Below, one piece after another: positions 14,627-42,548 of a DNA stretch of 64,000 bases; the stretch's first letter is position 1; every line of letters begins with the position of its first letter. Made by a program: the position numbers and the translations under genes. The notes under the pieces are model-generated. The model saw only the letters and a list, made by a program, of their open reading frames with translations. It ran no database searches and was not told where the DNA came from. The stretch comes from Rugosimonospora sp. (GTDB taxonomy: Bacteria; Actinomycetota; Actinomycetes; Mycobacteriales; Micromonosporaceae). The stretch spans positions 797 through 64,796 of the forward strand of contig DASXOA010000078.1 of the NCBI GenBank assembly GCA_036494675.1, in the 5' to 3' direction.

Positions 14627-14974
14627 ATGGTGAAGCTCACGATTCTCACCGCCATCAGCGGCCTCGCTGTGTTGGTGATCATCTTTGAACTGGTTCGCCG
14701 GCGACAGCTCCGGGAGAAGTACGCCATTCTCTGGGGCCTGGTGGGCATCGTGGTGATCCCACTCGCGATCTTCCCGGGCCTGCTGAACCCGCTGTCCCGC
14801 GCCGTCGGGGTGGCCAGCGGGGTCAGCCTGGTCCTCTTCCTGGCCGTCGTCTTCCTGCTGGTGGTCTGCATCCACCTGAGCTGGGAGGTCAGCCGGTTGG
14901 AGGAGGAGACCCGGACGCTCGCCGAGGACCTGGCACTGCTGCGTACGGAGCTCAGGGAGCGGGTCGACCAATGA
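14627..14974 (+). CDS. Small membrane protein (DUF2304-like, from memory), usual partner of a GT2
   Basis: 115 aa with several TM helices and a C-terminal coiled-coil-like tail (SRLEEETRTLAEDLALLRTELRE). Its stop overlaps the start of the GT2 (ATGA). Confidence 0.65.
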   Translation: MVKLTILTAISGLAVLVIIFELVRRRQLREKYAILWGLVGIVVIPLAIFPGLLNPLSRAVGVASGVSLVLFLAVVFLLVVCIHLSWEVSRLEEETRTLAEDLALLRTELRERVDQ

Positions 14975-22183: not shown

Positions 22184-22402
22184 CTACTGGCCGCCCTTCT
22201 GGACGTATCCGCGCACGAACTCCTCGGCGTTTTCTTCCAGCACCGAGTCAATCTCGTCGAGCAGGTCGTCGACGTCCTCGGTCAGCTTTTCCTGCCTCTC
22301 GGCGACCTCTGGGTCGACCGCCGGCGCCCCGGCGTCGTCGACTTCCTCGTCGCGCCGGCTGCGACCCGACTGCGACTGTCCGCCCGTGTCCCGGGTTGCC
22401 AT
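22184..22402 (-). CDS. pup: Prokaryotic ubiquitin-like protein Pup
   Basis: 72 aa, MATRDTGGQSQSGRSRRDEEVDD...LLDEIDSVLEENAEEFVRGYVQKGGQ, with a C-terminal GGQ. An AGGAGG sequence lies 5 nt upstream of ATG 22402. Confidence 0.95.
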   Translation of the reverse strand: MATRDTGGQSQSGRSRRDEEVDDAGAPAVDPEVAERQEKLTEDVDDLLDEIDSVLEENAEEFVRGYVQKGGQ

Positions 22403-22723
22403 CGTTGCCTCCTGCTTGCTGCGCGGCCCCGCCTGCGTGCCCTGTGCGACCAACTTACCGCGCCCGTCGACCCCGGTCCCACCGACGCGACGTCCCGCCG
22501 CCCGCCACGCGGGGCCGCTGACCTGCCCGGTGGGGCCGGCGGTTTCGCCCATGGCGTAACGTTCGCGCCGCGTCCGGGGCGCCGGGATGCGGCGCCGGCG
22601 GTGGTCGCGCCGGTCCGGCAGCGGTGGACGGTCGACAGCCCCACGGGACGGGGCACGGCGGTCCGGTGGGGGCACCGGGCGGAACTCAGGGCTCGTGGGG
22701 GCCGGCGGTGGCGGGCAGCGGAC

Positions 22724-24322: not shown

Positions 24323-24868
24323 CTAGCGGCGAAACGCCCAGTACTTGCTCATCTGATAGTTGATGATCGGTGACACCACAATGATGATCGCCTGGGCGAG
24401 GAGCACCGGTACGTGGCCCAACTCGATCAGCAACGGCAGGCCCACGAACGAGAACCCGAGCGCCCACAGGCACACCACGTAAAAGCGCAGGAACCCGGGC
24501 ACCCACGGGCCGGTGGTCCGGAAGACGAAGCGGCGGTACAGCGGGTAGGTCAGCATGCCGTTGAGGAAGTTCGCGATCACCGCCATCACCAGGTACGGGA
24601 TGTGGCCCTTCGAGAACAGCCAACCACCGGAGAAGATCCCGTAGTACACGACCGACGAGATGCCACCGACGATGATGTAGCGGATCCGCCGGTCGGCGGC
24701 CAGTGCCTTCACGAGCCCCACGAGAGAGCGCGGCCGCGCGGAATTCTCTCCGGGCGCAGTGCCGTCGCCGAGGTTCCCGGCCGGAACGGTGCCATCGACC
24801 GGAGCGGTGTTCTGGACCGGCACAGTGTCTTGGACCGGCACGGTGGCCGGTCGACGCAGGTCAGTCAC
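24323..24868 (-). CDS. GtrA-family membrane protein (candidate polyprenyl-P-sugar flippase)
   Basis: RIRYIIVGGISSVVYYGIFSG...NFLNGMLTYPLYRRFVFR...SPIINYQMSKYWAFRR. Four TM helices. The N-terminal 45 aa or so are low-complexity (TVPVQ repeats). The GTG start overlaps the aminotransferase stop by 8 nt. Confidence 0.8.
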   Translation of the reverse strand: MTDLRRPATVPVQDTVPVQNTAPVDGTVPAGNLGDGTAPGENSARPRSLVGLVKALAADRRIRYIIVGGISSVVYYGIFSGGWLFSKGHIPYLVMAVIANFLNGMLTYPLYRRFVFRTTGPWVPGFLRFYVVCLWALGFSFVGLPLLIELGHVPVLLAQAIIIVVSPIINYQMSKYWAFRR

Positions 24869-26018
24869 GGGTCTGGTAGTCCATCACCGAGTCGATGATG
24901 TAGTCGAGGTCGCCGTCCGACAGGCCGGCGAACATCGGCAGCCGGATCAGCCGGTCCGCGACGTCCTCGGTCACCGGGCAGCCCTCCGGTCCCACCCGCC
25001 CGTACTTGACGCCGGCGGGAGCCAGGTGCAGCGGCTGGTAGTGGAAGGTCCCGGTCACCGCCCGGGAGGCCAGGTGCTTGAGCAGCGCCTGGCGGCTCTC
25101 CAGGTCGGGCATCAGGAAGTAGTAGAGATGGGCCGGGTGGACCCGGTCCTCGGGCACCGTCGGCGCGACCGCGCCGTTCTCGGCCGCCCAGCCGGCGAGC
25201 CGGTCGTGGTACGCGTTCCACACCCGCATCCGCCGCCGCTGGATGTCCTCGAACGCCTCCAACTGGCCGGTCAGGTACGCGGCGAGCAGGTCGGAGGGCA
25301 GGAAGCTCGACCCGATGTCCATCCAGCGGTACTTGTCCACCATGCCGCGGAAGAACTGGCTCCGGTTGGTCCCCTTTTCCCGGATCACCTCGGCGCGCTC
25401 GACGAAGCGGGAGTCGTTGAAGACCAGGGCCCCGCCCTCGCCACACTGCACGTTCTTCGTCTCGTGGAAGCTCTGCGTGGCCATCGCACCGATCGAGCCC
25501 AGCTTGCGCCCCCGGTAGGTGCCGCCGATGCCGTGCGCGTTGTCCTCGATGACGACCAGGCCGTGCCGGGCGGCGATGTCGGTGATGGTGTCCATCTCGC
25601 AGGCCACGCCGGCGTAGTGCACCACCACGATCGCCTTGGTGCGCGGCGTGATCGCCGCCTCCACCTGCCGCTCGTCGAGGTTGAGCGTGTCCGGACGGCA
25701 GTCCACGAACACCGGGACCGCGCCGCGCAGCGCGTACGCGTTGGCCGTGGAGCAGAAGGTGAACGACGGCACGATCACCTCGTCGCCCGGGCCGAGGTCG
25801 AGCAGGATCGCCGACATGTCCAACGCGTGCGTGCAGGACGTCGTCAGCAGGGCGGAACGGGCGCCGACGAGCGACGTCAGCAGGGCGGTCGCCCGCTTGG
25901 TGAACGGGCCGTCACCGGCCAGTGGCCCTGACGTCATCGCCTGCTGCACATACCTGGTCTCGTTGCCGGCGAGGAACGTGCGGTTGAAAGGGATCGCCGG
26001 GCGAGTCGATGCGGTCAC
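24861..26018 (-). CDS. DegT/WecE-type dTDP-4-keto-6-deoxyhexose 4-aminotransferase
   Basis: 385 aa. Long collinear matches to E. coli WecE as I recall it: IPFNRTFLAGNETRYVQQAM, PSFTFCSTANA, VVVHYAGVACEMD, SFHETKN (PLP-binding Lys), EKGTNRSQFFRGMVDKYRWMDIGSSFLPSDL. Confidence 0.9.
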   Translation of the reverse strand: MTASTRPAIPFNRTFLAGNETRYVQQAMTSGPLAGDGPFTKRATALLTSLVGARSALLTTSCTHALDMSAILLDLGPGDEVIVPSFTFCSTANAYALRGAVPVFVDCRPDTLNLDERQVEAAITPRTKAIVVVHYAGVACEMDTITDIAARHGLVVIEDNAHGIGGTYRGRKLGSIGAMATQSFHETKNVQCGEGGALVFNDSRFVERAEVIREKGTNRSQFFRGMVDKYRWMDIGSSFLPSDLLAAYLTGQLEAFEDIQRRRMRVWNAYHDRLAGWAAENGAVAPTVPEDRVHPAHLYYFLMPDLESRQALLKHLASRAVTGTFHYQPLHLAPAGVKYGRVGPEGCPVTEDVADRLIRLPMFAGLSDGDLDYIIDSVMDYQTRD

Positions 26019-26105
26019 GGGGGGGCAACCTACCTATCTTCGAGCGAGCGCCTGCGGATGCTACCACTGAAGCAATCATCTTGTCCGATCCCTGACACTG
26101 GCACC

Positions 26106-28499
26106 TCATCCGCCAGCCGGCGGGATCTGGTAGACCGCACAGTCGCCGGACCTGAACCGCAGCGTGGCGAACTCGCCCAGGTCCGCGGAGTACGGAGTCT
26201 GCGTGTCGTCCACGAACAGCCACGTCACGCCGTACCGGTCGCGCAGCAGGTCGATCGTCTGCGCCGACGGTGTCGCGAAGGCGGCGTCGTTGTCGGCCAG
26301 CACCTGGGGCTTCCAGTACGGCACGACGATGTCCCCGACATGCTGGAGCACGGCCCGCTCGTGCGCGGTCGTGGTGAAGCCCCAACCTTCGACGAGCATC
26401 TGCCGCTCGCTGTAGGCCGACATGGAGAAGTGCAGGTCGGTGCAGTCACCGCTGCGGTACAGCCGCAGGCAGTGGGCGTTGGTGGCGACCAGAGCGTCGG
26501 GGTCCGAGTGGTCGCGCAGCCAGCGGCCGGCCTCCAGGGTGCCCTTGCTGACCAGCGGGGTGCCGGCCACCACGTCGCGCCAGCCGCTGCTCCTCGACTC
26601 GCGGACGATCCGGGTGTAGTCGCTGAACGCGGTGCTCAGCCCGAACCCGGCGAGCAGCGCGATGATCAACGCGTGGCTGATCCCCTTCATCGCCGGTACC
26701 CTGCGCCGGACCAGCCACACGATGACGACCGCCGCCACCGCGACGACCACGGTCAGCGCGTACGGCCACAGCAGCGCGACCGCCAGGTGCTTCGCGCTGC
26801 CGGTCGTCCGGATGGTCGGCACCCGGCTGCTGCCCAGGTGCCGGATGACCAGCACCGAGGCCGCACCGACCGCGGCCGCCCCGACCAGCGCGACACCGTC
26901 GCGGCGGCGCAGCCGGCCGTCGCGCAGTACGGCGACCAGCCCACCCACCGCGGCAAGCGCCAGGAACGGCCGGACCGACTCGATGAAGTACATCTGGGCG
27001 TCCCCGGCCTGACCGGTCAGCGCCGTGCCGCCCATGCCGGCGATCCCCATGCCGAGCAGCAGCAGGATGTCGGTGTCGAACAGCCGGCGGCGGCGGACCA
27101 GGCCGCTGATGCCCGACCAGATGCACAGCCAGCACCACGCGGAGATCATCGCGAGCACGAGCAGGCGCGACATCCTCGGGTCGTGGGTGAAGCCGGTGGT
27201 CGAGCCGATCCCGGACGTCTGCTCGGTGAACAGCGGGGTGAGCTGCAGGCCCTGGCTGGCGTCGCCCAGCAGCACAAACTGCGCGAAAAGCTCGAAGACC
27301 AGCACGACGCCCGTGATCACCAACGCCGGGCGGTGCCAGCCGCGCCGGGTCACCAGGTTGCCGGCGATCACGACGAGCAGCCCGGCCAGCAACAGCGGGA
27401 TGTAGGTCGCCTTGCCGCCCATCACCGCGCCGAGCATCAGCACGAGAGCGATCCAGCGCCGCTTGTCGCGGTGCTGGCCGCGCAGCAGGTCGACGACGAG
27501 CAGCACGACGGGCAGGAACAGCATCGCGCCGAACGTCTGGGTCGGGCTGGTGAACGACGTCAGGCGCAGCGAGCCCCCGTCGTCGATGCCGTTGAACGCC
27601 AGGTTGGTGTAGAAGCCGCTGAGCTGCCAGCGGTACGGGTCGATGGCGAGCACGAACATGCTGATGACGACCGCGGCCGGGCCGGTCCACCAGTGCCCGA
27701 ACAGCTTGCGGGCCAGCAAGGCGAGCAGGATCGCCGAGGCCACGAACATCGGCAGCAGGGACAGCCGCAGCAGCAGCACCAGCGGCTCGATCCCGGTGAC
27801 CCAACTGGTCGCGGCCATGTCCGCGTAGACGAACCAGTGGTAGTACAGCGGCTCGCCGTGCACCCACGGGATCGACATCGGCATGTGGTGCTTGGCCTCG
27901 CCGACCAGCGCCAGGTGGAAGGTCGAGTCGGTGTCCGGAGTCGAGTTGTACGGCCAGGTCAGCCCGTACCGCCGGAAGAACTTGAAGGCGAAGACGACGA
28001 GCAGGCCGGCGGTACCCGCCATCGACCATGCCCACAGCAGCGGCGGCCGCTCGCGGTCCGGCGACGAGCGCCAGTACCGGCGCAGGCCCGGCACGGCCAG
28101 GAAGACGACGATCGTGGCGACCGGCCAGACGAGGACCAGCAGTGGTGCCCCGACCGCCCGGGCCGGAATGTAGGCGAACACCTCACCGGCGTAGCCGAGG
28201 GCGGTGCCGCACGCCACGTCGGCGACGAACGAGCCGGGCCCACGGTACAGCAGCCGCCAGACCAGCGTGCCGGGCAGGATCACGCCGAGGCCGAGGTAGC
28301 CGCCGAACGCGGCGGTGCTGGTGAACGGCACGCCGTAGAACCGCAGCGCGACGACGGTGAACGCGACGACCAGCACCGCTGGCAGCCAGCCGCTGCCGGC
28401 GATCCGCCGCACGACCGACCGTCCCGGCGATCCGCCCGGCGCACGGGCGGGCCGGACGTCGGGGGCCACCGCCGCGAGTCCGTCCGTCGTTGCCGTCAT
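26106..28499 (-). CDS. Large GT-C-like polytopic membrane protein (paralog C1)
   Basis: ATG 28499 (MTATTDGLAAV...) is preceded by GGGGGAGAG. About 797 aa, many TM helices, and a C-terminal extracytoplasmic domain of about 180 aa ending RFRSGDCAVYQI. Collinear with 32482..34884. Confidence 0.7.
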   Translation of the reverse strand: MTATTDGLAAVAPDVRPARAPGGSPGRSVVRRIAGSGWLPAVLVVAFTVVALRFYGVPFTSTAAFGGYLGLGVILPGTLVWRLLYRGPGSFVADVACGTALGYAGEVFAYIPARAVGAPLLVLVWPVATIVVFLAVPGLRRYWRSSPDRERPPLLWAWSMAGTAGLLVVFAFKFFRRYGLTWPYNSTPDTDSTFHLALVGEAKHHMPMSIPWVHGEPLYYHWFVYADMAATSWVTGIEPLVLLLRLSLLPMFVASAILLALLARKLFGHWWTGPAAVVISMFVLAIDPYRWQLSGFYTNLAFNGIDDGGSLRLTSFTSPTQTFGAMLFLPVVLLVVDLLRGQHRDKRRWIALVLMLGAVMGGKATYIPLLLAGLLVVIAGNLVTRRGWHRPALVITGVVLVFELFAQFVLLGDASQGLQLTPLFTEQTSGIGSTTGFTHDPRMSRLLVLAMISAWCWLCIWSGISGLVRRRRLFDTDILLLLGMGIAGMGGTALTGQAGDAQMYFIESVRPFLALAAVGGLVAVLRDGRLRRRDGVALVGAAAVGAASVLVIRHLGSSRVPTIRTTGSAKHLAVALLWPYALTVVVAVAAVVIVWLVRRRVPAMKGISHALIIALLAGFGLSTAFSDYTRIVRESRSSGWRDVVAGTPLVSKGTLEAGRWLRDHSDPDALVATNAHCLRLYRSGDCTDLHFSMSAYSERQMLVEGWGFTTTAHERAVLQHVGDIVVPYWKPQVLADNDAAFATPSAQTIDLLRDRYGVTWLFVDDTQTPYSADLGEFATLRFRSGDCAVYQIPPAGG

Positions 28500-28572
28500 G
28501 CTCTCCCCCGATGGGCGCGCCGCGAGGACCGGGTTCGGCCCGACCCACGGACGGTACCGGGCATCGTCACGA

Positions 28573-29589
28573 TCATTGCGTGGGCATCTGCTGTGACTCG
28601 ACGCGCTGGGACGGGACGTACGCGCCCGATGCCCCGATGGGGCCACCCGTCGCCGCGGGGCCCGCGAGGACGGGGGCGCCGACGCGCTCCCGCACCACGT
28701 AGGTGGGCCGGCCCATGCCCCGGGCGTGCACCCGGCCGATGTACTCGCCGAGCACGCCGATGGCGATCATCTGCGCCGAGGAGAAGATGGCGACCATGGT
28801 GGCGATCGTGGTGAAGCCGGCGACGGTCGTGTTGCCCACGAAGTACAGCCAGAGCAGCCGCACCGAGAGCAGCAGGCCGCACACCCCGATGAGGAAGCCG
28901 AGGTAGGTGACCAGCCGCAGCGGCTTCGTCGAATACCCCATCACCATGTTGATGGTGTGCCGGACCAGAGACCGGAAGGTATAGGCCGATTTGCCCACGG
29001 TGCGCTCGTCCATCCGCACCGTCAGGCCGCCCACCCTGCTGGTCGCCCAGGACAGCGCCACGTCCACCGACGCGTGCGGGCCCTCCACCTGGTCGAAGGC
29101 GGCCCGCAGGAAGGACCGGAAGATGCGGAACGGGCTGAGCAGCCGCGCGTTCTGGATACCCATCCCGCTGGACATGACCGCCTTGGTCGCGCGCGCGGCG
29201 AAGCTGCGCATGATCGCGTGCTCCTCCTCGGCGGCCGTGGCGTAGACCAGGTCCAGGTCGTCGGTGAGCGCGGCGACCAGCTTCGGCAGCTCCTCCGGCA
29301 GGTGCTGGAGGTCGTCGTCCATGGTGATGATGAGCTCGTGGCGGGTGGCCCTGATACCCGCGATCAACGCGCTGTGCTGCCCGTAGTTGCGGGCCATGCG
29401 GATGGCCTGGACGTGCTCGTACTTCACGGCCAGTCCGCTGGCCACCCCCCAGGTCTCGTCCGGGCTGTCGACCACCAGGATGACCTCGTAGTCCGGGGTG
29501 AGTGTGGGAAGCACCTCGTTCAGCCGCTCGATCAGCGGCGGAAGGGTGAGCGCCGAGCGGTAACAGGGGATGACGACTGAGATGGACAT
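28573..29589 (-). CDS. ArnC/GtrB-like GT2 (candidate polyprenyl-phosphate sugar synthase)
   Basis: MSISVVIPCYRSALTLPPLIERL...ILVVDSPDETW...NYGQHSALIAG...ITMDDDLQH. Two C-terminal TM helices (LRLVTYLGFLIGVCGLLL and FTTIATMVAIFSSAQMIAIGVLGEYIGR), as in ArnC, GtrB and DPM synthases. Confidence 0.85.
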   Translation of the reverse strand: MSISVVIPCYRSALTLPPLIERLNEVLPTLTPDYEVILVVDSPDETWGVASGLAVKYEHVQAIRMARNYGQHSALIAGIRATRHELIITMDDDLQHLPEELPKLVAALTDDLDLVYATAAEEEHAIMRSFAARATKAVMSSGMGIQNARLLSPFRIFRSFLRAAFDQVEGPHASVDVALSWATSRVGGLTVRMDERTVGKSAYTFRSLVRHTINMVMGYSTKPLRLVTYLGFLIGVCGLLLSVRLLWLYFVGNTTVAGFTTIATMVAIFSSAQMIAIGVLGEYIGRVHARGMGRPTYVVRERVGAPVLAGPAATGGPIGASGAYVPSQRVESQQMPTQ

Positions 29590-29632
29590 CGGCTGCTCCT
29601 ATCGCCGGCCGGGGCGGGCGAACCCTGACACG

Positions 29633-30553
29633 CTATTTCACCGGCTTACGGGCTTCGATCACAAATCCGCTCGCGATCACCGAGGCGGCCGGGTGCCGGG
29701 CGAGCAGCAGGTCGAGCACCTTCAGCGGCGACAGGACCCAGGTCAGCGGCACCAGCAGCCGGTACAGCCGGGAGCTGCCGAAGGACAGCACCATCGCGAG
29801 CCACTCCTGGAGTACCCAGAGCAGGCCGGAGGTGGGGCCGGCGCCGACCCGCACGTCGACCACCTCGAAGCCGGGGAACTGCTCGCGCAGCCCGACGTTC
29901 GTGTACCGCTGGAAGTCGTACGGCGAGGCATGGAACGGCTGCATGAACGGGACGAAACAGAGCAGCCGGCCGCCCGGCGCCAGTACCCGCAGAATCTCCG
30001 CGATGTGGGCGGCCGGGTCCGGCACGTGCTCCAGTACGGCGATGCTCATCGCACCGGCCAGGCTGCCCTCCGCCACCGGCAGGTGCCGCAGGTCGGTGAC
30101 GATGTCGACCTCGTCGTAGTTGCCACCGTCCACGCACACCAGCCGCGGGTCGCGCCGGTGGGTGCCCGATCCCAGGTCCGCCACCAGGTCCCGGTCCAGG
30201 TCGAAGCTGTCGAGGAACGGCTTGACGAACCGGACGGACATCACCGGCGAGAGCACCGAGATGGCCATCGGGTAGATCCGGCTGAAGCGCTGCTTGACGC
30301 CTTCCTTGAGGCGGTTGAGCGGATCCTGCTTGAGTTCGGCCTCGCCGAAGCCGCCGAACCGCAACTGGTGGCCGTGGCGCTTGCCTGCCACGCCGCACTG
30401 GGCGCAGGCGAGGTCCCCGGTCAGCGTGCCATGACAGGTCGGGCAGACCAGTACGCCGGCCAACCGCTCCCCACGGTCCGTAGCGGCGCCCGAGTCGGCC
30501 GGCTGACCGGTCGCTGTCTGCGTGGCTGCGGCGGAGCCGTTCACATACCTCAC
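29633..30553 (-). CDS. SAM-dependent methyltransferase with an N-terminal zinc-ribbon
   Basis: CPTCHGTLTGDLACAQC precedes the methyltransferase core (ADLGSG...AVLEHVPDPAAHIAEILRVLAPGGRLL). A hydrophobic C-terminal segment follows. Confidence 0.75.
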   Translation of the reverse strand: MRYVNGSAAATQTATGQPADSGAATDRGERLAGVLVCPTCHGTLTGDLACAQCGVAGKRHGHQLRFGGFGEAELKQDPLNRLKEGVKQRFSRIYPMAISVLSPVMSVRFVKPFLDSFDLDRDLVADLGSGTHRRDPRLVCVDGGNYDEVDIVTDLRHLPVAEGSLAGAMSIAVLEHVPDPAAHIAEILRVLAPGGRLLCFVPFMQPFHASPYDFQRYTNVGLREQFPGFEVVDVRVGAGPTSGLLWVLQEWLAMVLSFGSSRLYRLLVPLTWVLSPLKVLDLLLARHPAASVIASGFVIEARKPVK

Positions 30554-30729
30554 CCGATCTCGCTATTCGATGATGTGGTGGGCGTCGACGACGTGATCGC
30601 GACCGTCCGGAAGGGTCCCAGAAATGGGCGGAAGATCACGCGAAGCACCTTCGACGGAGTGTAGACGTAGCGCTGCGCTACCGTGAGCCGGGCGCCCGCC
30701 GCGCGGCACTCCCGGCGTGACCTCGCGAT

Positions 30730-32247: not shown

Positions 32248-32481
32248 GGAAGGAGTGTACGGATCATGATTTTCGATGGGACACGAGAGGCGCCCCCGGC
32301 AAGTACACTATCGGCCGGTCGACGCCGCGCCGATCGAATCGCCTGTTCACCTCGCGGCAACCTGAATCAGAAGCGGCGCAAATCAGAAACGACTCTGGGA
32401 CACAAGAGTGCTGACTAGTTCGATGACGCGCGCCTCGACCCGCTGGGATCGGGGCGCGGGAGCGGTCGGGGTTGGATTGCC

Positions 32482-34884: not shown

Positions 34885-34888
34885 TCCT

Positions 34889-34930
34889 CGCGCCGTCGGG
34901 CCGGCACGAACGGCCGGTCCGACGGGCGCG
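34889..34930. terminator. Hairpin at the convergent junction between C2 and the LuxC-like gene
   Basis: cgcgccgtcgggccgg - loop - ccggtccgacgggcgcg. About 15 bp of stem with one bulge and one mismatch, and no U-tract. It lies between stop codons at 34884 and 34933. Confidence 0.45.
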
Positions 34931-34932
34931 GG

Positions 34933-36165
34933 TCACGCCTGGATGGTCGTGATCCGGGTGAACTCGCGCAACAGGTCGTACCCGTCCCAGGTTCCGGCGA
35001 AGGTCAGCGCGGAGCCGAACGGGACGATGCGGTCGACCCCGCGCCCGGCGACCGCGGTGACGAAGTCGTCGAGTTCGGCCATGGAGAAGCCGAACTGGGC
35101 GAAGGTCTGGTCCTTGCGCCGGATCGTCGGTACCAGTTCGGTGAGCGACCCGACCGTCAGGTGGCAGATGGTGCCGGCTCCCAGCCACCGTTGCGGTACG
35201 GCGTCCAGATCGGCCAGGTCGACGCTGGCCACGGCGTTGCCGGCGAAGGTGACCCGGCGGGCCGCACCGGTAGCGGCCAGCCCATAGGTGGCCACCCGCT
35301 TCTCCACCGCCATCGCGGCGTCGACGCCCCAGCCGCGCTCGGCGACGACCTCGTCGAGCAGCGCCATGAACTCCGACCGGACCTCGGCGACATCGGCCGC
35401 GTCCCCGACCCAGAACAGGTTGCGGGGCGAGGAGCAGGCGGCCTGGTCGAACCAGAAGATGTCGTTGGCGAAGCCGTCGACCGCGGCACGGCGGGCCTGG
35501 GCCCCGGTCGCCCGCCAGCCGTCGACCGACACCGCCGCGAACGAGGACCGGTCGGGGAACGGCAGGTCGCGCGCCAACGGCGGCAGCGGGTGCCGGCGGA
35601 TCTGGGTCACCGACTCGTCCCCGCCCCAGATGACGCGCAGGTCGCAGGCCGCCGACAGAGCCGCCGTCGTCGCGTCGTCCCGCTCGTACGTGATCATGCG
35701 CTGGGTCTGCGCGACCACGGGGTCGGACTCGGCCAGGACGTCGTTCAGGGCCGACAGCACGCTGCTCGCGGCGCCCGCCGACCGGGGCGAGACCCGGACG
35801 ATGTTGCGGTTGCCGGCCAGCGCCGACAGCGCCCAGGAGTACACGAAGATGGTATCGACGTTCGCCGGCGGGAAGTGCAGCACCAGGCCGCGGGGTGCCC
35901 GGCGGCTGCCGCCCGCCCCGTCGTACAGGCGCTCGACCGCCCGGGCGATCTCACCGCGACGCAGGAAGAAGCCCAGCGAGCCCAACTCCGGGTACCGGCG
36001 GGCCAGGTCGGGTCGCAGCAACCGCCGGGAGAACGCGGTGAGGAATTCACGGATCCGCTCGTCGCCGACCGTCAGCCGGCCGCCGGCCGGCTCCTCCCCC
36101 AACTCCTTGAGCAGACCTTCGACGGTCGTGTCCGACCCTGCGGGGAACCGCACCGCCACGCTCAC
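34933..36165 (-). CDS. LuxC-family acyl-CoA/acyl-protein reductase-like protein
   Basis: GTG 36165 overlaps the stop codon of the upstream gene (GTGA). 410 aa. Contains ...NRNIVRVSPRS..., RVIWGGDESV, and FDQAACSSPRNLFWV, a putative catalytic Cys in an ALDH-like context. Confidence 0.7.
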   Translation of the reverse strand: MSVAVRFPAGSDTTVEGLLKELGEEPAGGRLTVGDERIREFLTAFSRRLLRPDLARRYPELGSLGFFLRRGEIARAVERLYDGAGGSRRAPRGLVLHFPPANVDTIFVYSWALSALAGNRNIVRVSPRSAGAASSVLSALNDVLAESDPVVAQTQRMITYERDDATTAALSAACDLRVIWGGDESVTQIRRHPLPPLARDLPFPDRSSFAAVSVDGWRATGAQARRAAVDGFANDIFWFDQAACSSPRNLFWVGDAADVAEVRSEFMALLDEVVAERGWGVDAAMAVEKRVATYGLAATGAARRVTFAGNAVASVDLADLDAVPQRWLGAGTICHLTVGSLTELVPTIRRKDQTFAQFGFSMAELDDFVTAVAGRGVDRIVPFGSALTFAGTWDGYDLLREFTRITTIQA

Positions 36166-37229
36166 GCGCCGCCACCTCCGCTGAACGTGTCGCTGCACCC
36201 ACGCGCCTCCGCGCGGGGCAACCGGCCAAGGATGCTGAACCGCTTGCCGGGCCAGGCGCCGTCGTCCACGCCGTGCACGGTGCCCAGGTCCTCGGTCAGC
36301 AGCACGTGCCCGGGGTAGGACTCCGGCAGCGTGCTGACGACCTCGACCAGCCCGGGCCGGCCGGGCGGGAGTTCCTGCCAGGTCTCCGGATCCCGGATGA
36401 TCACGTCGGCGAAGTCGGGGCAGTAGAGCGAGTCGCCCTCCGGCCCTTCCAGGTAGACGACCCCGATCTGCTCGACCATGCCGTAGAAGTTGTGGATCCG
36501 GGTCAGCCCGGTGTCGGCCGCGAAGGCCCGGCGGAACTCGGCGTTGTCCACCGAGCGGTCGACCAGCTTCTTCCATCCGCCGGAGTGGATGAGGAGGCCG
36601 TTGGACAGGTCGAGCCCGTGATCGCGGGCCAGCTCGTACAGGTACAGCCACACCATGAAGGTGAAGCCGAAGATCAGGAAAGGCTGGTCGCCGTGCTTGG
36701 CCAGGAAGCCCCGCACCGCCTCCAGGTCGGGCTCACCGGACTCGTCCAGGGCCCAGACGTGGTCCCGACCGAAGTTGACCATGCCCAGGACGCCGGCACC
36801 CCGCGCGCTGAACGACGTGCGGTTCTTGATCACCGAGGTGGTGTCCACGACCAGCATCGGCAGCCGGCGCGGGCCGAGCACACTCTGGATCGTCCGGGAC
36901 AGCATCCTGGTCTGCGTCGCGGCCGCCTGCCGGTCCAGGTAGATCCGGCTGACGTCGCCGGTGGTACCGCTGGAGGTGAGCACCTTGAAGACGTCCTCGT
37001 CCGGGACGCTCTTGAGTACCTGCGTCTTGAACAGCCGTACCGGCAGCCAGGGCAGGTCGGCCACCGATCCGTACGACCGGCCGGGCCCGTGCCCGATCGC
37101 GGACAGGATGTTGGCGTACGCCGCTCCGCCGGCCCGGTGCCGTTCGGTCAGCTCGACCAGCTCCGGCAGCAGCCGCTCTTCCTTCTGGGCCTGGGACAGC
37201 GTGAAGACGCTCTCGGTCGCGATGGTCAT
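36162..37229 (-). CDS. LuxE-family acyl-protein synthetase-like adenylating enzyme
   Basis: ATG 37229 overlaps the ligase stop codon (ATGA). 355 aa. Contains LTSSGTTGDVSRIYLD, HSGGWKKL and NFYGMVEQ. Confidence 0.7.
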   Translation of the reverse strand: MTIATESVFTLSQAQKEERLLPELVELTERHRAGGAAYANILSAIGHGPGRSYGSVADLPWLPVRLFKTQVLKSVPDEDVFKVLTSSGTTGDVSRIYLDRQAAATQTRMLSRTIQSVLGPRRLPMLVVDTTSVIKNRTSFSARGAGVLGMVNFGRDHVWALDESGEPDLEAVRGFLAKHGDQPFLIFGFTFMVWLYLYELARDHGLDLSNGLLIHSGGWKKLVDRSVDNAEFRRAFAADTGLTRIHNFYGMVEQIGVVYLEGPEGDSLYCPDFADVIIRDPETWQELPPGRPGLVEVVSTLPESYPGHVLLTEDLGTVHGVDDGAWPGKRFSILGRLPRAEARGCSDTFSGGGGA

Positions 37230-38653
37230 CCCGTCTTCTCCGACGCGCGGTTCTCCAACGTACGATAGTCGATCTTGCCGTTGCCCAGCAGCGGCAGCGA
37301 CTCGATGCCGCGCACGTCGAACCCGGTCCGGTGCAGGTTCAACCGGTCCGCGAGCGTGCTCGCGCAGCGCGCCGCCGAGTCGGCCGACGCCCCCTCCAGC
37401 CACACGACGATCTTGTCCTCGCCGTTGACCGCGGCCACGGCGCCGTGCTCGTGCAGCATCGCCTCGATGTCGTCGAGGTTGAGCCGGACCCCGAACACCT
37501 TGCCGAAGCGCTTGAGCCGCCCGCTCAGGAACAGGTACCCGTCCTCGTCCAGGTGGCCCAGGTCGCCGGTCTCCAGCAGGCCGCCCCGCTCGTCGCCGCG
37601 GCCGAGGTCGGCCGAGGTCTCGGCGTACCCCAGCATGACGTTCGGCCCCCGGTAGAGCACCTCGCCGCTGACCCCGGGCTCCGTGGTCTCGGTGCCGTCG
37701 TCCAGGCGCACCGACAGCCGCCCGCCGGGAACCGCCGGGCCGACCGAACCGATCTTCTCGGCGAGCCGCTCGGCCGGCAGCGTGGTGAGCCGCGGCCCGG
37801 CCTCGGTCTGGCCGTACATCACGTACAACCCGCCGCCCACGGCGGCCATCCGCTGCTGGAAGTCGGCGACCCGTTCCGGGCGCAGCCGGCCACCGGCCTG
37901 GGTCAGGGTACGCAGGGTCGGGTGCTTCGCCGGATCGAAGCGCAGCCGGCGGAGCATCTCGTACTGGTACGGGACGCCGGAGAACGACGTGACGCCGTAG
38001 GTGTCGACCGCGTCCCAGAACGGCCGGTGCATCAGGCCGCCCTCCTCCAGCAGCATGGTGGCGCCGCTGGACAGGTGGGTGTTGAGCACCGACATGCCGA
38101 AGCTGTAGAAGAACGGCAGGCTGCTCACCGCGACCTCGGTCGCGTCGATGCGCAGCGCCTCGACGATCGACGCGGTGTTGGCCAGGATCGCGGAGCGCGA
38201 CAGCCGGACCAGCTTCGGATTGCCGGTCGAGCCGGACGTGGCGAGCAGGATCCCCAACTGCGGATCGGGCCGGGTACCGGACGGCGACTCCCGCTGCCAC
38301 AACGGTCCCAGCACCGGGTCGGCGACCCGCCGGTACCCCTTGGGCGCCTCGTCCGGCTCCGGCGCGGCGTCCAACCCGAGGACGAGCGCCGGTTCGAAGC
38401 GGTCGACGAGGTCGGCCAGGATCTGCCCGCTCAACGCCGGATCCAGCAGTGCCACCGGACGGTGCGCCTGCCATGCGCCCAGGTACCGGACCACCGCGGC
38501 CGTCTCGACGGGGATCCGCAGGAACACCGGGCCCGGCAGCCGTTCGGCGTAGGCTCCCGCCGCGGCGGCCACCTCGTCGACCAGCGCGGCCCCGCCCAGC
38601 GTCGCGCCGGTGGCCGCGTCGGTGAGCCGGGCACCGGGGTGCAGCAGCGACAT
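37226..38653 (-). CDS. AMP-dependent synthetase/ligase (ANL adenylating enzyme)
   Basis: ATG 38653 overlaps the SDR stop codon (ATGA). 475 aa. Core motifs: LATSGSTGNPKLV, YGQTE, GDLGHLDEDGYLFLSGRLKR, LLGNGKIDY. Confidence 0.85.
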   Translation of the reverse strand: MSLLHPGARLTDAATGATLGGAALVDEVAAAAGAYAERLPGPVFLRIPVETAAVVRYLGAWQAHRPVALLDPALSGQILADLVDRFEPALVLGLDAAPEPDEAPKGYRRVADPVLGPLWQRESPSGTRPDPQLGILLATSGSTGNPKLVRLSRSAILANTASIVEALRIDATEVAVSSLPFFYSFGMSVLNTHLSSGATMLLEEGGLMHRPFWDAVDTYGVTSFSGVPYQYEMLRRLRFDPAKHPTLRTLTQAGGRLRPERVADFQQRMAAVGGGLYVMYGQTEAGPRLTTLPAERLAEKIGSVGPAVPGGRLSVRLDDGTETTEPGVSGEVLYRGPNVMLGYAETSADLGRGDERGGLLETGDLGHLDEDGYLFLSGRLKRFGKVFGVRLNLDDIEAMLHEHGAVAAVNGEDKIVVWLEGASADSAARCASTLADRLNLHRTGFDVRGIESLPLLGNGKIDYRTLENRASEKTG

Positions 38654-39408
38654 CAGATCACCAGCCCGCCGTCGACCGCGACGACCTGACCGGTGACGAA
38701 CCGCGCCGCGTCGGAGAGGAGGAAGGCGATCACGTCGGCAACGTCCTCGGGCTGCCCGAGCCGGCCGAGCGAGGTCTGCGCGATCCGTGCGGCGCGGCCG
38801 GCGTCGTCGAGCGAGTCGAGCATGTCGGTGCTGATGAAGCCCGGGGCCACCGCGTTGACGCGGATGCCCGCCGGGCCCAACTCCTTCGCCGCGCCCTGGG
38901 CCAGACCGGCGACGGCGGCCTTCGCCGCGCCGTAGAGCACCTGCCCGGACGCGCCCCGGGTGCCCATCACCGACGACACCAGGACCACGGCCGGCGACGT
39001 GCCGCGACGCAGCAACCTGACCGCGGCCTGCAGGGTGTTCGCCGCGCCGACGGCGTTGACCGCGAAGAGCCGTTGCACGCTCGCGTCGGGCATCATCCCG
39101 AGCAGCCCGGCCTCGTGCGTGCCGGCGTTGACGACAAGCGCGTCGAGCCGCCGGCGCCATTCGAAGACCTGGCGCATCATCGCATTGACGTCCGCCGGGT
39201 CGGCCACGTCGCCGTGGAGCACCCGGACCTCGGTGCCGTAGGCGTCGATCAGCTCCTCGGCGGTGCGCTTGGCGGAGCCGTCCTGCACTCCGTGCAGGGC
39301 CAGCGCGTAGCCGTCGGCCGCGAGTCGGTGAGCGGTCGCCCTGCCGATCCCCCGGGAGGACCCGGTGACCAGGGCGACCCTCGACTCATCCGGCGATGTC
39401 GACGTCAT
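38653..39408 (-). CDS. Short-chain dehydrogenase/reductase (FabG-like)
   Basis: VALVTGSSRGIGRA (TGxxxGxG), NAG, YGAAKAAV (YxxxK), and a FVTGQVVAVDGG tail. Confidence 0.9.
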   Translation of the reverse strand: MTSTSPDESRVALVTGSSRGIGRATAHRLAADGYALALHGVQDGSAKRTAEELIDAYGTEVRVLHGDVADPADVNAMMRQVFEWRRRLDALVVNAGTHEAGLLGMMPDASVQRLFAVNAVGAANTLQAAVRLLRRGTSPAVVLVSSVMGTRGASGQVLYGAAKAAVAGLAQGAAKELGPAGIRVNAVAPGFISTDMLDSLDDAGRAARIAQTSLGRLGQPEDVADVIAFLLSDAARFVTGQVVAVDGGLVI

Positions 39409-39631
39409 GCTTTCCCAGAATCTCCACCGCCTTGGTGAACGAACTCATGTCGATCACCTCGTCGGTGTCGATCATGACGTCGAAGGCGTCCTCGATCTCG
39501 GCGATCAGCGCCATGTGCGCCAGCGAGTCCCACTTTTCGATGCCGCGGTATTCCAGCGAATCGACGTCGTAGTCCTCGGAAAGGTCCAGCGCCGTACGGA
39601 ACGCCACACGCAATCGATCGATATTGCTCAT
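39386..39631 (-). CDS. Acyl carrier protein
   Basis: 81 aa from ATG 39631, MSNIDRLRVAFRTALDL...EKWDSLAHMALIAEIEDAF... The DSL motif contains the phosphopantetheine-attachment Ser. Overlaps the SDR start by 23 nt. Confidence 0.8.
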   Translation of the reverse strand: MSNIDRLRVAFRTALDLSEDYDVDSLEYRGIEKWDSLAHMALIAEIEDAFDVMIDTDEVIDMSSFTKAVEILGKHDVDIAG

Positions 39632-39732
39632 GAATTGATCCTCTTCGGGGTCGGGGACCAGCGGGCGGCACTGCAACAGCACGCGAGTGTACCCTTGGCC
39701 GGTCTTCAGGCGGGTAGGAGGGATCGGCCCAG

Positions 39733-40239
39733 GTGCTACGCGAGGCGACCGACGCGGACGTCGACACCATCAGGCAGTGGCGCAATCATCCCAAGGTGCG
39801 GGGCGCCAGCATCATGACCGATTTCATCACTCCCGAGGGCCATGCCCAGTGGTGGGCCAATGTCTCCGCCGATCCCCGTCGCCGGGTGCTGATCTTCGAG
39901 CACGGCGGAGTCCCGTGCGGCGTCGTCACCATCAACGACCACGATCCGGACGCCGGCACCGCCGAGTGGGGCTTCTTCCTCGACGTCGAAGGCCTGCAGG
40001 AACGCGGCACCCTGCTGCCGGCGTGGCTCGAACTGGAGAAGGCCGCGATCGCCTTCGGGTTCGACGAACTGGGACTGACCGCGATGGGTGGCCGGACGCT
40101 GGCCTGGAACAAGCAGGTGCTGGCGCTGCACCGCCGGTTCGGCTTCGTCGAGGTGCCGGAACGCCGGTACGTGACCCAGATCGACGGCGCGGACCAGGAC
40201 GTGCTCTGGACCGAGCTGACCGCCCAGCGCCGCCGTTAG
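39733..40239 (+). CDS. GNAT N-acyltransferase, PseH-like
   Basis: 168 aa. MLREATDADVDTIRQWRNHPKVRGASIMTDFITPEGHAQWW...AEWGFFL...AWNKQVLALHRRFGFVEV resembles aminosugar N-acetyltransferases of the PseH type. Confidence 0.75.
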   Translation: MLREATDADVDTIRQWRNHPKVRGASIMTDFITPEGHAQWWANVSADPRRRVLIFEHGGVPCGVVTINDHDPDAGTAEWGFFLDVEGLQERGTLLPAWLELEKAAIAFGFDELGLTAMGGRTLAWNKQVLALHRRFGFVEVPERRYVTQIDGADQDVLWTELTAQRRR

Positions 40240-40274
40240 CCGTCACCGCGGCTGATCGTCACCGCCGCTGGCCG

Positions 40275-42548
40275 TCAGCCGTCACCGCGCAGCGCCGTTC
40301 CGACCGCCGGCCGGGCGGGTGCCACCTCGGACCGCCCGGCCGCCATCCTCGGCGCCAGGAGGCCGGCGACGGCCAGCAACAGTGCCGGGTACACGGCCAG
40401 GAGCCAGGCGGCCGACAACCCCGGCCGGCCCGCGTGGATGAGGCCGGCCACCACCGCGACACCCAGGGCGTACCACGTCGACGCGCTGCGCCACTGGACC
40501 GCCAGGGCGGCGATCGCGACGAACACGGCAAGGTACAGCACCCGATCGTGCGCGATCGCCCGGAAGTCCGCCGACGCGAGGTGGTTGACCGACCACGGGT
40601 GCCAGATCAGGTCGCCGGCTGCTCCACGTACCCCGAGAATGACCGCACCCACCACGGCGGCGGTGGCGGCCGACGGCGCCCAGGCATTGGCCGGCCGGCG
40701 CAGTACCGCGGCGGCGGCGAGCCAGCCGGCGATGGGCCCGGCGGCGAGCGCGAGACCCTCCACGGACACGGCGCCGGCCAGCGCGATGACCGCCGCGATC
40801 CCCGCCAGCCGGCGCAACCCCGTCCAGTCGGCCGGCCCGTCGCGGGTCGGCAGCAGGGCGAGAAGCACGGTCGCGGCGGCCAGGACCACTGCCCGGCGCC
40901 ACGAATCCAGGGCCGCACCGACCATCGCGCCCGACAGCGCGAGTGTCAGCCCCGCCAGGACACCGGCGCTGGCCCCGAACCGGTCGGCGACCATCACCAC
41001 CAGTTGCACGAAGGCCACCGTCAGCAGGACGAAGGACAGTGCGATCAGTACGCCGCCGGACGGCTTGTCCCGCCGCCACACGACCAGGACGGCGCCGAGG
41101 AAGGTGAGGCCGACCAGCACCCACGCGGCCATCGACACCGCCGGCCGGCCGGCCACCCCGGCCCGCGGCGGGCCCACCGGGTGGTCCGTCGCTCCGGGCC
41201 GCGGCACGCCCGCCGGCCAGGGCATTCCCGCCGGCTGCGCCCGGTCGGCCGGCACCGGCGCGGCTTCCGTCGAGCGCGACGGTGACCGGCGGGGACGCGC
41301 GGCGAAATCGGCGACCACGGCCAGCCCGGCGAGCAGGATCAGCGGCTGGATCGGCACGAAGTACCGGTAGTACGAGGGCCAGACCACCAGCAGGTTGAGC
41401 ACGATGGTCGCCAGCGCGGCACCGACGGTCAGGGCGGTCAGCTCGCTGCGCCACCGCCAGAGCACCGCCACGACCGCCAGTACGACGATCGCCAGCAGTG
41501 CGAGGTCCCCGCGGAGCGTGCCGTAGTCGGCCCGGGCGATGTAGCGCATCCCCCACGGCAGGCTGGCGATCCCGCAGTGGTGCAGGGCGTGGCAGGTCAA
41601 TTGCTGGTACCGGCCGGAGAGGTCGAGCGCCGCGCCACCGAACCAGATCCGGGTCACCACCGACTGGGCGGCCAGGGTGGCGGCGGTGACCCCGACGGCG
41701 ACCAGGGCGAAGCGCCACCACACGTTGGCCCAGCGGCGCTCCCGTGCCGCGACGACCAGCCAGGCCAGCACCACACCGGCGGTCAGCGCGATCCCGAACT
41801 GCCGCACGCACAGCCCGAGTACCAGCGTGACCCCGAACCACAGCAGGTCGCGGCGCTTCGGGACCCGGGCGAGCGGCAGGAACAGCACGCACGCCACGGT
41901 CAGCGCGACGGCCAGCGCCTCGGTCATCGCGTACACGCCGAACCGGGACACCGTCCCCGGGATCAGCAGCAGCAGCCCCGCCAGCAGCCCCCAGTACCGC
42001 CCCCACAGCCGGTGGGCCAGCAGCGCCACCAGGGCGACCGCGACCCCGAAGCTGACGACCGGCACGACCAGCATGCCGTAGGGGCCGAACAGGCCCACGA
42101 ACGGCGAGGACAGCAGCGGGTACAGCGGGCGGGCGCCGACGACCGCCCCGTTCGCGCCGGAGAAGAACCCGTGCTCGTACCCGGCGGGCCAGCACAGCGT
42201 GTCGCACGGCCGCACGCCGTCCATGTTGGCCAGGAAGTCGCGGGTACGGTGCGCGGACTCCGTCTGCGAGTAGCCCAGGTACCGGTACGACCAGGCGAGG
42301 TAGAGCCGGGAATCGGAGATCCACTGGGTACGGGTGACGATGTTGGCCCAGCACACCACCGCGTAGCAGGTGCCGAGCAGCAGCCAGCCCCAGGCCGGTA
42401 CCGCGGCGGTCAGCCGTGCCCACAATGACGCCATGGGGCTCCCGTCGTCCGGTCGTCGTTGCTTCCCGGCGGCCGCCTGTTCAAGGGCCCGGCGATATCC
42501 GCCGCGGTAACCTACCACCGGCGCGGGCCGCGATGTGACCCATCGCAC
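40275..42548 (-). CDS. Two-domain polytopic membrane protein (paralog B2), ArnT/PMT-like N-domain
   Basis: Collinear with B1: WISDSRLYLAWSYRYLGYS, CWPAGYEHGFFSGANGAVVGARPLYPLLSSPFVGLFGPYGMLVVPV, RRDLLWFGVTLVLGLCVRQF, YYRYFVPIQPL. Alternative start ATG at 42434. Confidence 0.7.
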   Translation of the reverse strand: MRWVTSRPAPVVGYRGGYRRALEQAAAGKQRRPDDGSPMASLWARLTAAVPAWGWLLLGTCYAVVCWANIVTRTQWISDSRLYLAWSYRYLGYSQTESAHRTRDFLANMDGVRPCDTLCWPAGYEHGFFSGANGAVVGARPLYPLLSSPFVGLFGPYGMLVVPVVSFGVAVALVALLAHRLWGRYWGLLAGLLLLIPGTVSRFGVYAMTEALAVALTVACVLFLPLARVPKRRDLLWFGVTLVLGLCVRQFGIALTAGVVLAWLVVAARERRWANVWWRFALVAVGVTAATLAAQSVVTRIWFGGAALDLSGRYQQLTCHALHHCGIASLPWGMRYIARADYGTLRGDLALLAIVVLAVVAVLWRWRSELTALTVGAALATIVLNLLVVWPSYYRYFVPIQPLILLAGLAVVADFAARPRRSPSRSTEAAPVPADRAQPAGMPWPAGVPRPGATDHPVGPPRAGVAGRPAVSMAAWVLVGLTFLGAVLVVWRRDKPSGGVLIALSFVLLTVAFVQLVVMVADRFGASAGVLAGLTLALSGAMVGAALDSWRRAVVLAAATVLLALLPTRDGPADWTGLRRLAGIAAVIALAGAVSVEGLALAAGPIAGWLAAAAVLRRPANAWAPSAATAAVVGAVILGVRGAAGDLIWHPWSVNHLASADFRAIAHDRVLYLAVFVAIAALAVQWRSASTWYALGVAVVAGLIHAGRPGLSAAWLLAVYPALLLAVAGLLAPRMAAGRSEVAPARPAVGTALRGDG

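Follow-up and report, generated by a model that had tools for sequence, protein, structure and literature searches.

What would a set of amino-sugar, membrane and lux-like genes make, and why does it lie between dop and arc, two genes of the pupylation and proteasome pathway? The question is posed by a contig of Rugosimonospora sp. (an uncultured actinomycete from soil, family Micromonosporaceae; assembly GCA_036494675.1, contig DASXOA010000078.1), of which positions 797 to 64,796 were analysed; this stretch of 64,000 nucleotides, with a G+C content of 70%, is referred to as the window. Fourteen genes, here numbered g01 to g14, separate dop from arc. We regard it as fairly probable that g01–g13 work together as a single module, a glycosylation system with three components and a lipid carrier. 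The product would most likely be an N-acylated 4-amino-6-deoxy sugar that is put on a membrane lipid carrier and attached to the cell envelope.

In many bacteria three-component systems of this kind govern how phages attach, how antibiotics are resisted and how the immune system recognises the cell, and almost nothing is known of such envelope decorations in Micromonosporaceae and related rare actinomycetes. In the module a nucleotide-sugar branch defined by WecE is joined with an ArnC-like enzyme and with proteins of GT-C families that carry only the annotation hypothetical.

The locus and the borders of the insertion

Third-position GC frame analysis together with the listing of open reading frames (ORFs) gives the following map:

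22724–24232, minus: dop, Pup deamidase/depupylase (Pup_ligase PF03136, 1e-195); left flank, outside the system
24323–24868, minus: g01, GtrA-family small membrane protein (PF04138)
24861–26018, minus: g02, WecE-type dTDP-4-keto-6-deoxyhexose 4-aminotransferase (NF008687, TIGR02379)
26106–28499, minus: g03, 797-aa membrane protein of predicted GT-C fold, candidate transferase (structural model and Foldseek)
28573–29589, minus: g04, ArnC/GtrB-type GT2, candidate polyprenyl-phosphate sugar synthase (PDB and NCBIfam matches)
29633–30553, minus: g05, S-adenosylmethionine-dependent methyltransferase, accessory (Methyltransf_11)
30730–32247, minus: g06, 505-aa polytopic membrane protein, probable GT-C fold, accessory (structural model and Foldseek)
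32248–32481: divergent intergenic region between the g06–g01 operon (minus) and g07 (plus), presumed promoters (gene map)
32482–34884, plus: g07, 800-aa paralog of g03, second GT-C transferase candidate (identity to g03)
34933–36165, minus: g08, LuxC-family acyl-thioester reductase (PF05893)
36162–37229, minus: g09, LuxE-family acyl-protein synthetase (PF04443)
37226–38653, minus: g10, adenylate-forming ligase, candidate acyl-ACP ligase (AMP-binding PF00501)
38653–39408, minus: g11, FabG-like short-chain dehydrogenase/reductase, SDR (adh_short_C2)
39386–39631, minus: g12, small acyl carrier protein, ACP (weak PP-binding match, serine motif)
39733–40239, plus: g13, PseH-like GNAT, candidate N-acyltransferase for the 4-amino group (Acetyltransf_3, TIGR03585)
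40275–42434, minus: g14, PMT_2-related GT-C-like membrane protein, resident gene (family matches, synteny)
42720–44501, minus: arc, proteasomal AAA ATPase Mpa/ARC (AAA, Prot_ATP_ID_OB_N, Prot_ATP_ID_OB_C); right flank

Stop and start codons overlap at g01/g02, g08/g09, g09/g10, g10/g11 and g11/g12, which indicates co-translated operons. An assembly artefact is ruled out by a 96%-identical contig from another metagenome, on which the genes are called in the same way throughout the overlap, between arc and the methyltransferase gene g05 (g05–g14). Two of the proteins, g03 and g06, match VGJ07_06900 and VGJ07_06915 at 100% identity; these come from a metagenome-assembled genome of Rugosimonospora sp., in which they lie on a 67.7-kb contig and are both annotated as hypothetical.

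A first-pass annotation of the window had described an 18-kb island of 15 genes at this position. Its own list sums to 14, the number found here. The gene set itself stands: profile searches with Pfam and NCBIfam reproduced all of its family assignments, and the four polytopic membrane proteins lie where it had placed them, with the sole change that g14 is likelier to start at M39 (42434) than at 42548 (alignment A2). The extent of the island requires revision. In close relatives, whose arc and dop are 91–94% identical to those of the window (dop 91–93% in relatives L004 and L005), the order is only arc, g14 homolog, (a different GtrA), dop. Gene g14 is thus resident, and the inserted module comprises g01–g13 (24323–40239, ∼16 kb). 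The affinities of g01 follow the same division: it shares 57–64% identity with GtrA from the modules of Dactylosporangium and L013, described below, versus 29% with the native GtrA of L005.

A mobile-element origin was considered and set aside. A tRNA search found no tRNA genes marking the borders, a repeat search found, apart from the g03/g07 paralogy, neither direct nor inverted repeats at the flanks, and there is no sharp shift in GC (0.68–0.72 over g01–g13 and 0.75 over g14, versus 0.68–0.75 in the rest of the window). A functional link to pupylation was likewise rejected, since the module occupies other genomic sites in Dactylosporangium, Actinoallomurus and Nonomuraea.

The sugar branch and the proposed lipid carrier

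The aminotransferase g02 lies above the equivalog cutoffs of both WecE models (NF008687, 541 bits versus 375; TIGR02379, 506 versus 435) and matches DegT_DnrJ_EryC1 at 8e-94; the ArnB model gives only 213 bits versus a cutoff of 631. The window also carries rmlA (7461–8345), rmlC and rmlD.

Of the PDB entries matched by g04, the best is ArnC (8.5e-39, residues 2–302 on 9–313), followed by GtrB sll0501 (1e-29) and an archaeal DPMS (4e-18), all three being polyprenyl-phosphate monosaccharide synthases. The alignment is full-length and includes the two C-terminal membrane helices, which correspond to hydrophobic segments 223–253 and 259–284 of g04. In NCBIfam the best models are ArnC (166 bits) and then PgfS (142 bits), each matched over the full length and each below cutoff, so g04 is a relative rather than an ortholog of these enzymes. 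The processive synthase PgaC aligns only with the N-terminal ∼90 residues. The first-pass assignment of g04 to the polyprenyl-phosphate synthases, rather than to the processive ones, is therefore sustained.

The GtrA domain of g01 (PF04138, 3.3e-15, residues 63–179, 56.8 bits versus a cutoff of 26.1) makes it a candidate flippase for a polyprenyl-phosphate-linked sugar; its N-terminal ∼60 residues are of low complexity and the start codon is uncertain for this reason. The methyltransferase g05 matches Methyltransf_11 over residues 151–199 only (4.4e-9) and carries an N-terminal CxxC...CxxC motif and a C-terminal hydrophobic segment (266–285). Weak NCBIfam matches connect g05 to the DVU_1556 methyltransferase family (1.7e-5), named after a Desulfovibrio gene, and g09 to the DVU_1553 AMP-dependent ligase family (2.8e-4), named after a gene neighbouring it, which hints at a distantly related conserved neighbourhood.

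Recurrence of the module across genera

A scan of a genome collection returned three loci. The genes are found in company again in Dactylosporangium, Actinoallomurus and Nonomuraea and on two further metagenome contigs, and recurrence across genera means that the gene set is not a chance grouping. Synteny, which the first-pass annotation had proposed as a check, thus both links the module genes and splits the resident g14 from the inserted g01–g13.

Dactylosporangium contains a compact 10-gene version (g03-like, WecE, GtrA / GT2, LuxC, LuxE, ligase, SDR, ACP / GNAT) at a site unrelated to the arc–dop gap. It is without g05. Identity to the window proteins ranges from 50–57% (g03-like, GtrA) up to 81–84% (LuxE, ACP). 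In one Dactylosporangium locus (L007, BAAABS010000027.1) genes for a thiolase, a 438-aa SDR and a MaoC dehydratase (6382–9958) stand directly upstream of the ten genes; they could supply a 3-hydroxyacyl precursor or belong to unrelated beta-oxidation. In one metagenome contig the module is instead found downstream of prcA.

The Actinoallomurus locus combines WecE, an ArnC-like GT2, GtrA and a g03-family gene with RmlA (446 bits versus a cutoff of 320) and RmlB (429 versus 365), and is without the Lux cassette. That this core brings RmlA and RmlB with it is the strongest argument for dTDP-4-keto-6-deoxyglucose as the origin of the sugar.

The Nonomuraea gerenzanensis locus (L010; NZ_LT559118.1, 1670499–1695527) is of a different kind: the cassette, followed directly by a g03-family gene, is embedded in a pseudaminic-acid-like locus that also encodes NeuB, a cytidylyltransferase, a PseB-like dehydratase and a DegT-family (PseC-type) aminotransferase. 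PseB and PseC-type enzymes make the 4-amino-4,6-dideoxy intermediate of pseudaminic acid synthesis. Beyond the g03-family gene lie genes for a GT2, a methyltransferase and a member of Polysacc_deac_1, to which ArnD belongs. The replicon is filed as a 'plasmid', yet at 11.85 Mb it is evidently the chromosome.

These arrangements bear on whether sugar branch and lipid-carrier genes work on the same substrate. It could be that they do not: the GT2, GtrA and GT-C proteins would then handle glucose, N-acetylglucosamine or mannose from a UDP or GDP donor, and the amino-sugar and acyl product would feed a separate pathway, with a cytoplasmic glycosyltransferase elsewhere. It is established that all characterised relatives of the GT2 (ArnC, GtrB, DPMS) take UDP- or GDP-sugars, and further GT2 genes and rml genes occur in the same window. 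Against such a split stands the adjacency of WecE, GT2, GtrA and the g03-family gene in four genera, in Actinoallomurus with RmlA and RmlB; moreover, the module is without a GT-A or GT-B transferase able to use a dTDP-sugar directly. We consider the split unlikely and favour a single pathway.

The membrane proteins and the GT-C fold

None of the four membrane proteins g03, g06, g07 and g14 has a Pfam match, and sequence searches of the PDB with g07, g14, g06 and the g14 family profile returned nothing meaningful. The GT-C fold is visible only through predicted structures. The AlphaFold2 model of g03, built from a 46-sequence alignment, is of high confidence (pLDDT 91.6, pTM 0.92), and its top 11 Foldseek matches are all GT-C enzymes (STT3, DPY19, AglB, ArnT, AftA) with probability 1.0 and E-values from 4e-6 to 5e-4. 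This model, which includes a C-terminal extracytoplasmic domain, strongly suggests that g03 is a glycosyltransferase of GT-C fold. Orthologs of g03 adjoin WecE, GtrA and GT2 in Dactylosporangium, Actinoallomurus and L013. The second large protein, g07, is 52% identical to g03 and keeps all invariant columns of the family alignment A1; at the DNA level the two genes form inverted repeats of 71–76% identity.

For g06 a GT-C fold is probable, at lower confidence than for g03. The model (pLDDT 76), in which a soluble domain is absent, was made from an alignment of seven sequences, a word index having given only seven homologs; its top 24 Foldseek matches are all GT-C, with E-values from 9e-4 to 0.17. 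The alignment shows invariant NCDS, QSRP and NDxxK motifs. In a full HMMER scan the family comprises 508 cluster representatives. There is no NCBIfam match for g06, and hhalign gave no signal between it and the g03 and g14 family profiles; between A1 and A2 (the g14 family alignment) hhalign gave a weak one (63% probability).

The prediction that all four membrane proteins would model as GT-C enzymes therefore holds directly for g03 and g06, and for g07 by way of its 52% paralogy; for g14 the pointer is that relatives match PMT_2.

The g03/g07 family is strongly expanded in Dactylosporangium: the genomes of D. aurantiacum, D. siamense, sp. AC04546 and sp. CA-092794 each have three or more paralogs among the matches listed. 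While the majority of members match nothing in Pfam, a few carry DUF2298 (PF10060) or DUF6541 (PF20176).

Orthologs of the resident g14 lie between arc and dop in relatives without the island. PMT_2 (PF13231), a GT-C family akin to GT39 and GT83, is matched by 13 of 22 members of the g14 family (best E-value 3.9e-11). The two halves of g14, both polytopic, are 30% identical to each other (1e-5). Across the family the halves are joined by a proline-rich linker with a conserved RRxPSRSTE motif, and in members P0134 and P0136 the first-half motif DSRxxLAWxYRxLGYS recurs in the second half. An 876-aa membrane protein directly downstream of prcA (17071–19701, minus), itself with a weak PMT_2 match, is 52% identical to g14 between the N-terminal halves; a second GT-C-like gene of the g14 family thus flanks the proteasome operon on its other side.

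Which acceptor would such transferases serve? With the same donor, the GT-C enzymes could modify secreted or membrane proteins, a variant of the single-pathway reading rather than an exclusive alternative to it. Precedents for O-glycosylation of proteins are PgfS/PgfM in Streptococcus mutans and actinobacterial Pmt. PgfS is the second-best NCBIfam match of g04, the g14 family matches PMT_2, and the protein-modifying STT3, AglB, DPY19 and Pmt4 are among the top Foldseek matches of g03 and g06. Yet ArnT, AftA and Emb, which modify lipids or polysaccharides, score similarly, and the fold alone does not give the acceptor; nor does the module encode a candidate acceptor protein. We view a protein acceptor as rather unlikely, and retain a cell envelope acceptor in the broader sense.

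The acyl cassette

The five genes g08–g12 encode a LuxC/LuxE/ligase/SDR/ACP cassette. The LuxC domain of g08 (PF05893, 7.6e-30) has its active-site cysteine in a DQAAC motif that aligns with DQQAC of LuxC in 7xc6, the LuxC–LuxE complex; the C-terminal RGCS of g09 (PF04443, 2.7e-49), a protein 58% identical to a homolog on a Deinococcus plasmid, aligns with KGCS of LuxE in the same structure. Both fall far short of the NCBIfam equivalog cutoffs (LuxC, 45 bits versus 750; LuxE, 60 versus 550), and neither luxD nor luxAB was found among the 14 genes or the window ORFs scanned against Pfam. The cassette is accordingly not a lux bioluminescence system.

The ligase g10 matches AMP-binding (PF00501, 3.5e-42), with no NCBIfam model reaching its cutoff, and g11 matches adh_short_C2 (4.5e-60) and TIGR01830 (215 bits, under the cutoff of 298). 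The PP-binding match of g12 is weak (1.4e-3); it has a WDSLAHM motif containing the DSL serine, is 80–84% identical to its Dactylosporangium ortholog, and has counterparts annotated as ACP in the Deinococcus and Ponticoccus cassettes. The GNAT g13 (Acetyltransf_3, 1.7e-11) is conserved beside the cassette in Dactylosporangium and in loci L012 and L013.

The order of the cassette is the same in the window, Deinococcus, a Ponticoccus plasmid, Dactylosporangium and Nonomuraea; Rhizobium plasmids hold a looser, rearranged set of the same gene types. In the exopolysaccharide locus of Deinococcus it is paired with an acetyltransferase (N-acyltransferase). Published descriptions of the flagellin glycosylation islands of Aeromonas group II include these five genes, likewise in this order, beside pse genes that include pseH and pseC (PMC7874193), and the ACP/SDR/ligase/LuxE/LuxC cassette is also carried by flagellin islands of Enterobacteriaceae (PMC4875605). 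Thus the first-pass statement that it knew of no characterised system joining lipid-carrier logic to a LuxCE-type acyl module stands in so far as no characterised identical locus emerged from a literature search (a weak negative, given its poor coverage of subscription journals), and is qualified in so far as the cassette itself had already been described in glycan loci. That the partner in Aeromonas, Nonomuraea and the actinomycetes is a DegT-family aminotransferase of the 4-amino-4,6-dideoxy type fits a cassette that supplies a non-acetyl N-acyl group.

The cassette might instead have come to lie beside the sugar genes by chance, and make a fatty aldehyde, alcohol or lipid of its own. LuxC and LuxE are, after all, defined by fatty-acid reduction in bioluminescence, and the papers on flagellin islands offer no more for the cassette than speculation about a 'liposugar' (PMC7874193, PMC4875605). 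Such an accident would have to be repeated: in Dactylosporangium, L012 and L013 the cassette goes with GT2, WecE, GtrA and g03-family genes, in Nonomuraea its partners are a g03-family gene and an aminotransferase gene of the DegT family, and in other phyla it is kept in glycan loci beside an N-acyltransferase. There are also no luxD, luxAB, wax or lipid synthesis genes nearby. Chance juxtaposition is therefore very improbable.

Nor need an N-acyl group be part of the final product. In the Arn pathway, as is well established, an N-formyl group is removed, and the acyl group here might similarly serve recognition by the GT2 and the flippase only, to be taken off outside the cell. The Nonomuraea locus with its cassette does encode a Polysacc_deac_1 enzyme. 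By contrast, neither the island in the window nor the Dactylosporangium module has a deacylase or deacetylase gene, and a six-gene acyl pathway would be costly for a group that is discarded. To us a transient group seems remote indeed, and an acyl group that persists on the sugar is preferred.

The proposed pathway and its strength

Under the single-pathway reading, RmlA (7461–8345) and an RmlB encoded elsewhere in the genome would provide dTDP-4-keto-6-deoxyglucose, which g02 would transaminate to a dTDP-4-amino-4,6-dideoxyhexose (4-amino-4,6-dideoxygalactose, Fuc4N, or viosamine). In the acyl branch an acid would be loaded on the ACP g12 by g10, its carboxyl group converted to an aldehyde by g09 and g08, and an oxo or aldehyde group reduced by g11; the likeliest result is a hydroxy-acyl group of short chain, comparable to the tetronate whose route has been proposed in Vibrio cholerae O1, and g13 would move it onto the 4-amine. 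A rarer variant is conceivable in which the aldehyde formed by LuxC condenses with the amine of the sugar and the SDR reduces the adduct, so that the sugar would be N-alkylated instead of N-acylated. The sugar would then be loaded on polyprenyl phosphate by g04, flipped across the membrane by g01, and transferred outside to a wall glycopolymer, lipoglycan or protein by g03, g07 and possibly g06 and the resident g14. Somewhere in the pathway g05 would add a methyl group.

Several points weigh against this scheme. The first concerns the donor: a dTDP-sugar is, to our knowledge, without precedent in the ArnC/GtrB/DPMS family, whose characterised members ArnC, GtrB and DPMS use UDP- or GDP-sugars, and no 4,6-dehydratase (RmlB) is present among the window ORFs scanned. 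In the acyl branch, the best match of g13 is to PseH (TIGR03585), at 74 bits versus a cutoff of 93.1, making it PseH-like and not PseH; a GNAT with an acyl-ACP donor would be unusual, and we know of no proof, in any organism, of roles for LuxE, LuxC and the SDR in N-acyl synthesis. As to the transferases, a g06 homolog in Allorhizocola stands outside any glycan locus and the g06 model draws on only seven sequences, while g14 has no Pfam match in its own sequence and is GT-C-like by family matches. Finally, every chemical step is deduced from gene families.

What the analysis shows is family membership, the modelled GT-C fold of g03 and, less securely, of g06, and the linkage of the genes across genera. 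The overall interpretation of the first-pass annotation accordingly draws support from the GT2, GtrA, the GT-C proteins and synteny, and what it said of sugar identity, N-acylation, carrier and acceptor is still, as is our own account of the chemistry, inference. The acyl chemistry and the dTDP donor of g04 are less certain than the overall logic of the module.

Taken as a whole, the scheme would define a new envelope decoration in rare actinomycetes, a polyprenyl-phosphate-delivered N-(hydroxyacyl)-4-amino-4,6-dideoxyhexose, and would bring three novelties with it; that all of this holds jointly is a tentative proposition, on balance doubtful. If it did, g04 would be the first ArnC-family synthase to use a dTDP-sugar, g03/g07 and g06 would represent two GT-C families without a Pfam model, and the cassette would be a general carboxylate-reducing tailoring unit that serves, in several phyla, to build N-acyl groups for 4-amino-4,6-dideoxy sugars; the present module would thereby be connected with the tetronate of V. 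cholerae and the flagellin glycans of Aeromonas. The practical value lies in the annotation of several hundred related proteins and in a testable pathway. For study of the LuxE/LuxC cassette the 10-gene version is the more tractable, since genomes that carry it are assigned to named species and strains of Dactylosporangium, among them D. roseum and NBC_01737.

Other genes of the window

The stretch from pafA (4679–6037) to prcA (window 4679–16910) is filled with envelope-sugar genes:

6063–6671: rmlC
6668–7492: methyltransferase
7461–8345: rmlA
8549–10507 and ∼10700–12618: two tandem paralogous membrane proteins of ∼650 aa, 34–35% identical to an Acyl_transf_3-like protein of L004
13091–14590, plus: rmlD
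14627–14974: DUF2304
14971–15672: GT2
15669–16910: 414-aa protein, 71% identical to its L005 counterpart

The RmlD domain covers only residues 202–484 of the longest ORF at 13091–14590, which would place the start ∼200 codons downstream unless the N-terminal part is a domain that went unrecognised. Similarly, the Pup domain occupies residues 95–163 of the longest ORF at 22184–22675 (minus); its position implies a real pup gene of ∼70 codons, like the 72 aa of relatives. A 975-aa secreted-type fungalysin (M36) metallopeptidase with a PepSY propeptide (55353–58280, minus) is unrelated to the module.

Comparison with known systems

One close likeness is to the Arn system, which places 4-amino-4-deoxyarabinose (Ara4N) on lipid A. 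Common to the two are a 4-aminotransferase of the DegT family, a GT2 of ArnC type (ArnC gives g04 its best PDB match), a GT-C transferase, ArnT being among the fold matches of g03, and, in the proposed scheme, a small flippase and N-acylation ahead of lipid loading. The differences are considerable: the aminotransferase is a WecE equivalog (dTDP-linked, 6-deoxyhexose) rather than ArnB, ArnA and ArnD are missing from the module, the flippase is GtrA-type rather than ArnE/F, and the GT-C proteins have no detectable sequence similarity to ArnT. The host, moreover, is Gram-positive and without lipid A, and the acyl group would come from a six-gene module instead of a formyltransferase.

The Gtr (GtrA/GtrB/GtrC) and CsbB/GtcA/YfhO systems likewise consist of a GtrB-type GT2, a GtrA-family protein and an extracytoplasmic polytopic transferase. 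They transfer glucose or N-acetylglucosamine directly from UDP-sugars, whereas here there is a dedicated amino-sugar and acyl pathway, and the transferases of the module belong to different families that lack Pfam models. A possible actinobacterial counterpart is mycobacterial PpgS (Rv3631) with Rv3779, in which a polyprenyl-phosphate-amino-sugar GT2 and a GT-C enzyme decorate a wall polymer, arabinogalactan, with galactosamine; the sugar is different, and there is no aminotransferase or acyl module.

The flagellin islands of Aeromonas group II and Enterobacteriaceae resemble the module in the five cassette genes, their order and their position by pseH- and pseC-type genes (PMC7874193, PMC4875605). 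In those islands, unlike the module, CMP-pseudaminic acid derivatives are attached to flagellin by cytoplasmic Maf or GT enzymes, and there is no ArnC-like GT2, GtrA or GT-C protein.

For the cassette and N-acylation together, the tetronate genes of V. cholerae O1, also called wbeK-O or rfbK-O, may well be the nearest genetic precedent. Perosamine, the sugar concerned, is a 4-amino-4,6-dideoxyhexose. Morona et al. are reported to have described the genes in 1995 as encoding an ACP, an acyl-CoA-synthetase-like ligase, an alcohol dehydrogenase, a LuxE–LuxC fusion and an acetyltransferase; by this description, the set of functions would be that of g08–g13. Its reductase is an iron-dependent alcohol dehydrogenase where the module has an SDR, and its acyltransferase is not known to belong to the GNAT family. 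The sugar, too, is handled differently, being GDP-linked and polymerised in the cytoplasm on undecaprenyl pyrophosphate (ABC-transporter route) rather than carried as a polyprenyl-phosphate monosaccharide. Five dedicated genes, VC0248–VC0252, make the 3-deoxy-L-glycero-tetronate with which perosamine is N-acylated (PMC3441752).

Set against these systems, the module is a new combination of known parts and not a new principle: its logic is that of Arn, Gtr and CsbB/YfhO, and what sets it apart is its sugar branch, the acyl module joined to it and the families to which its GT-C proteins belong.

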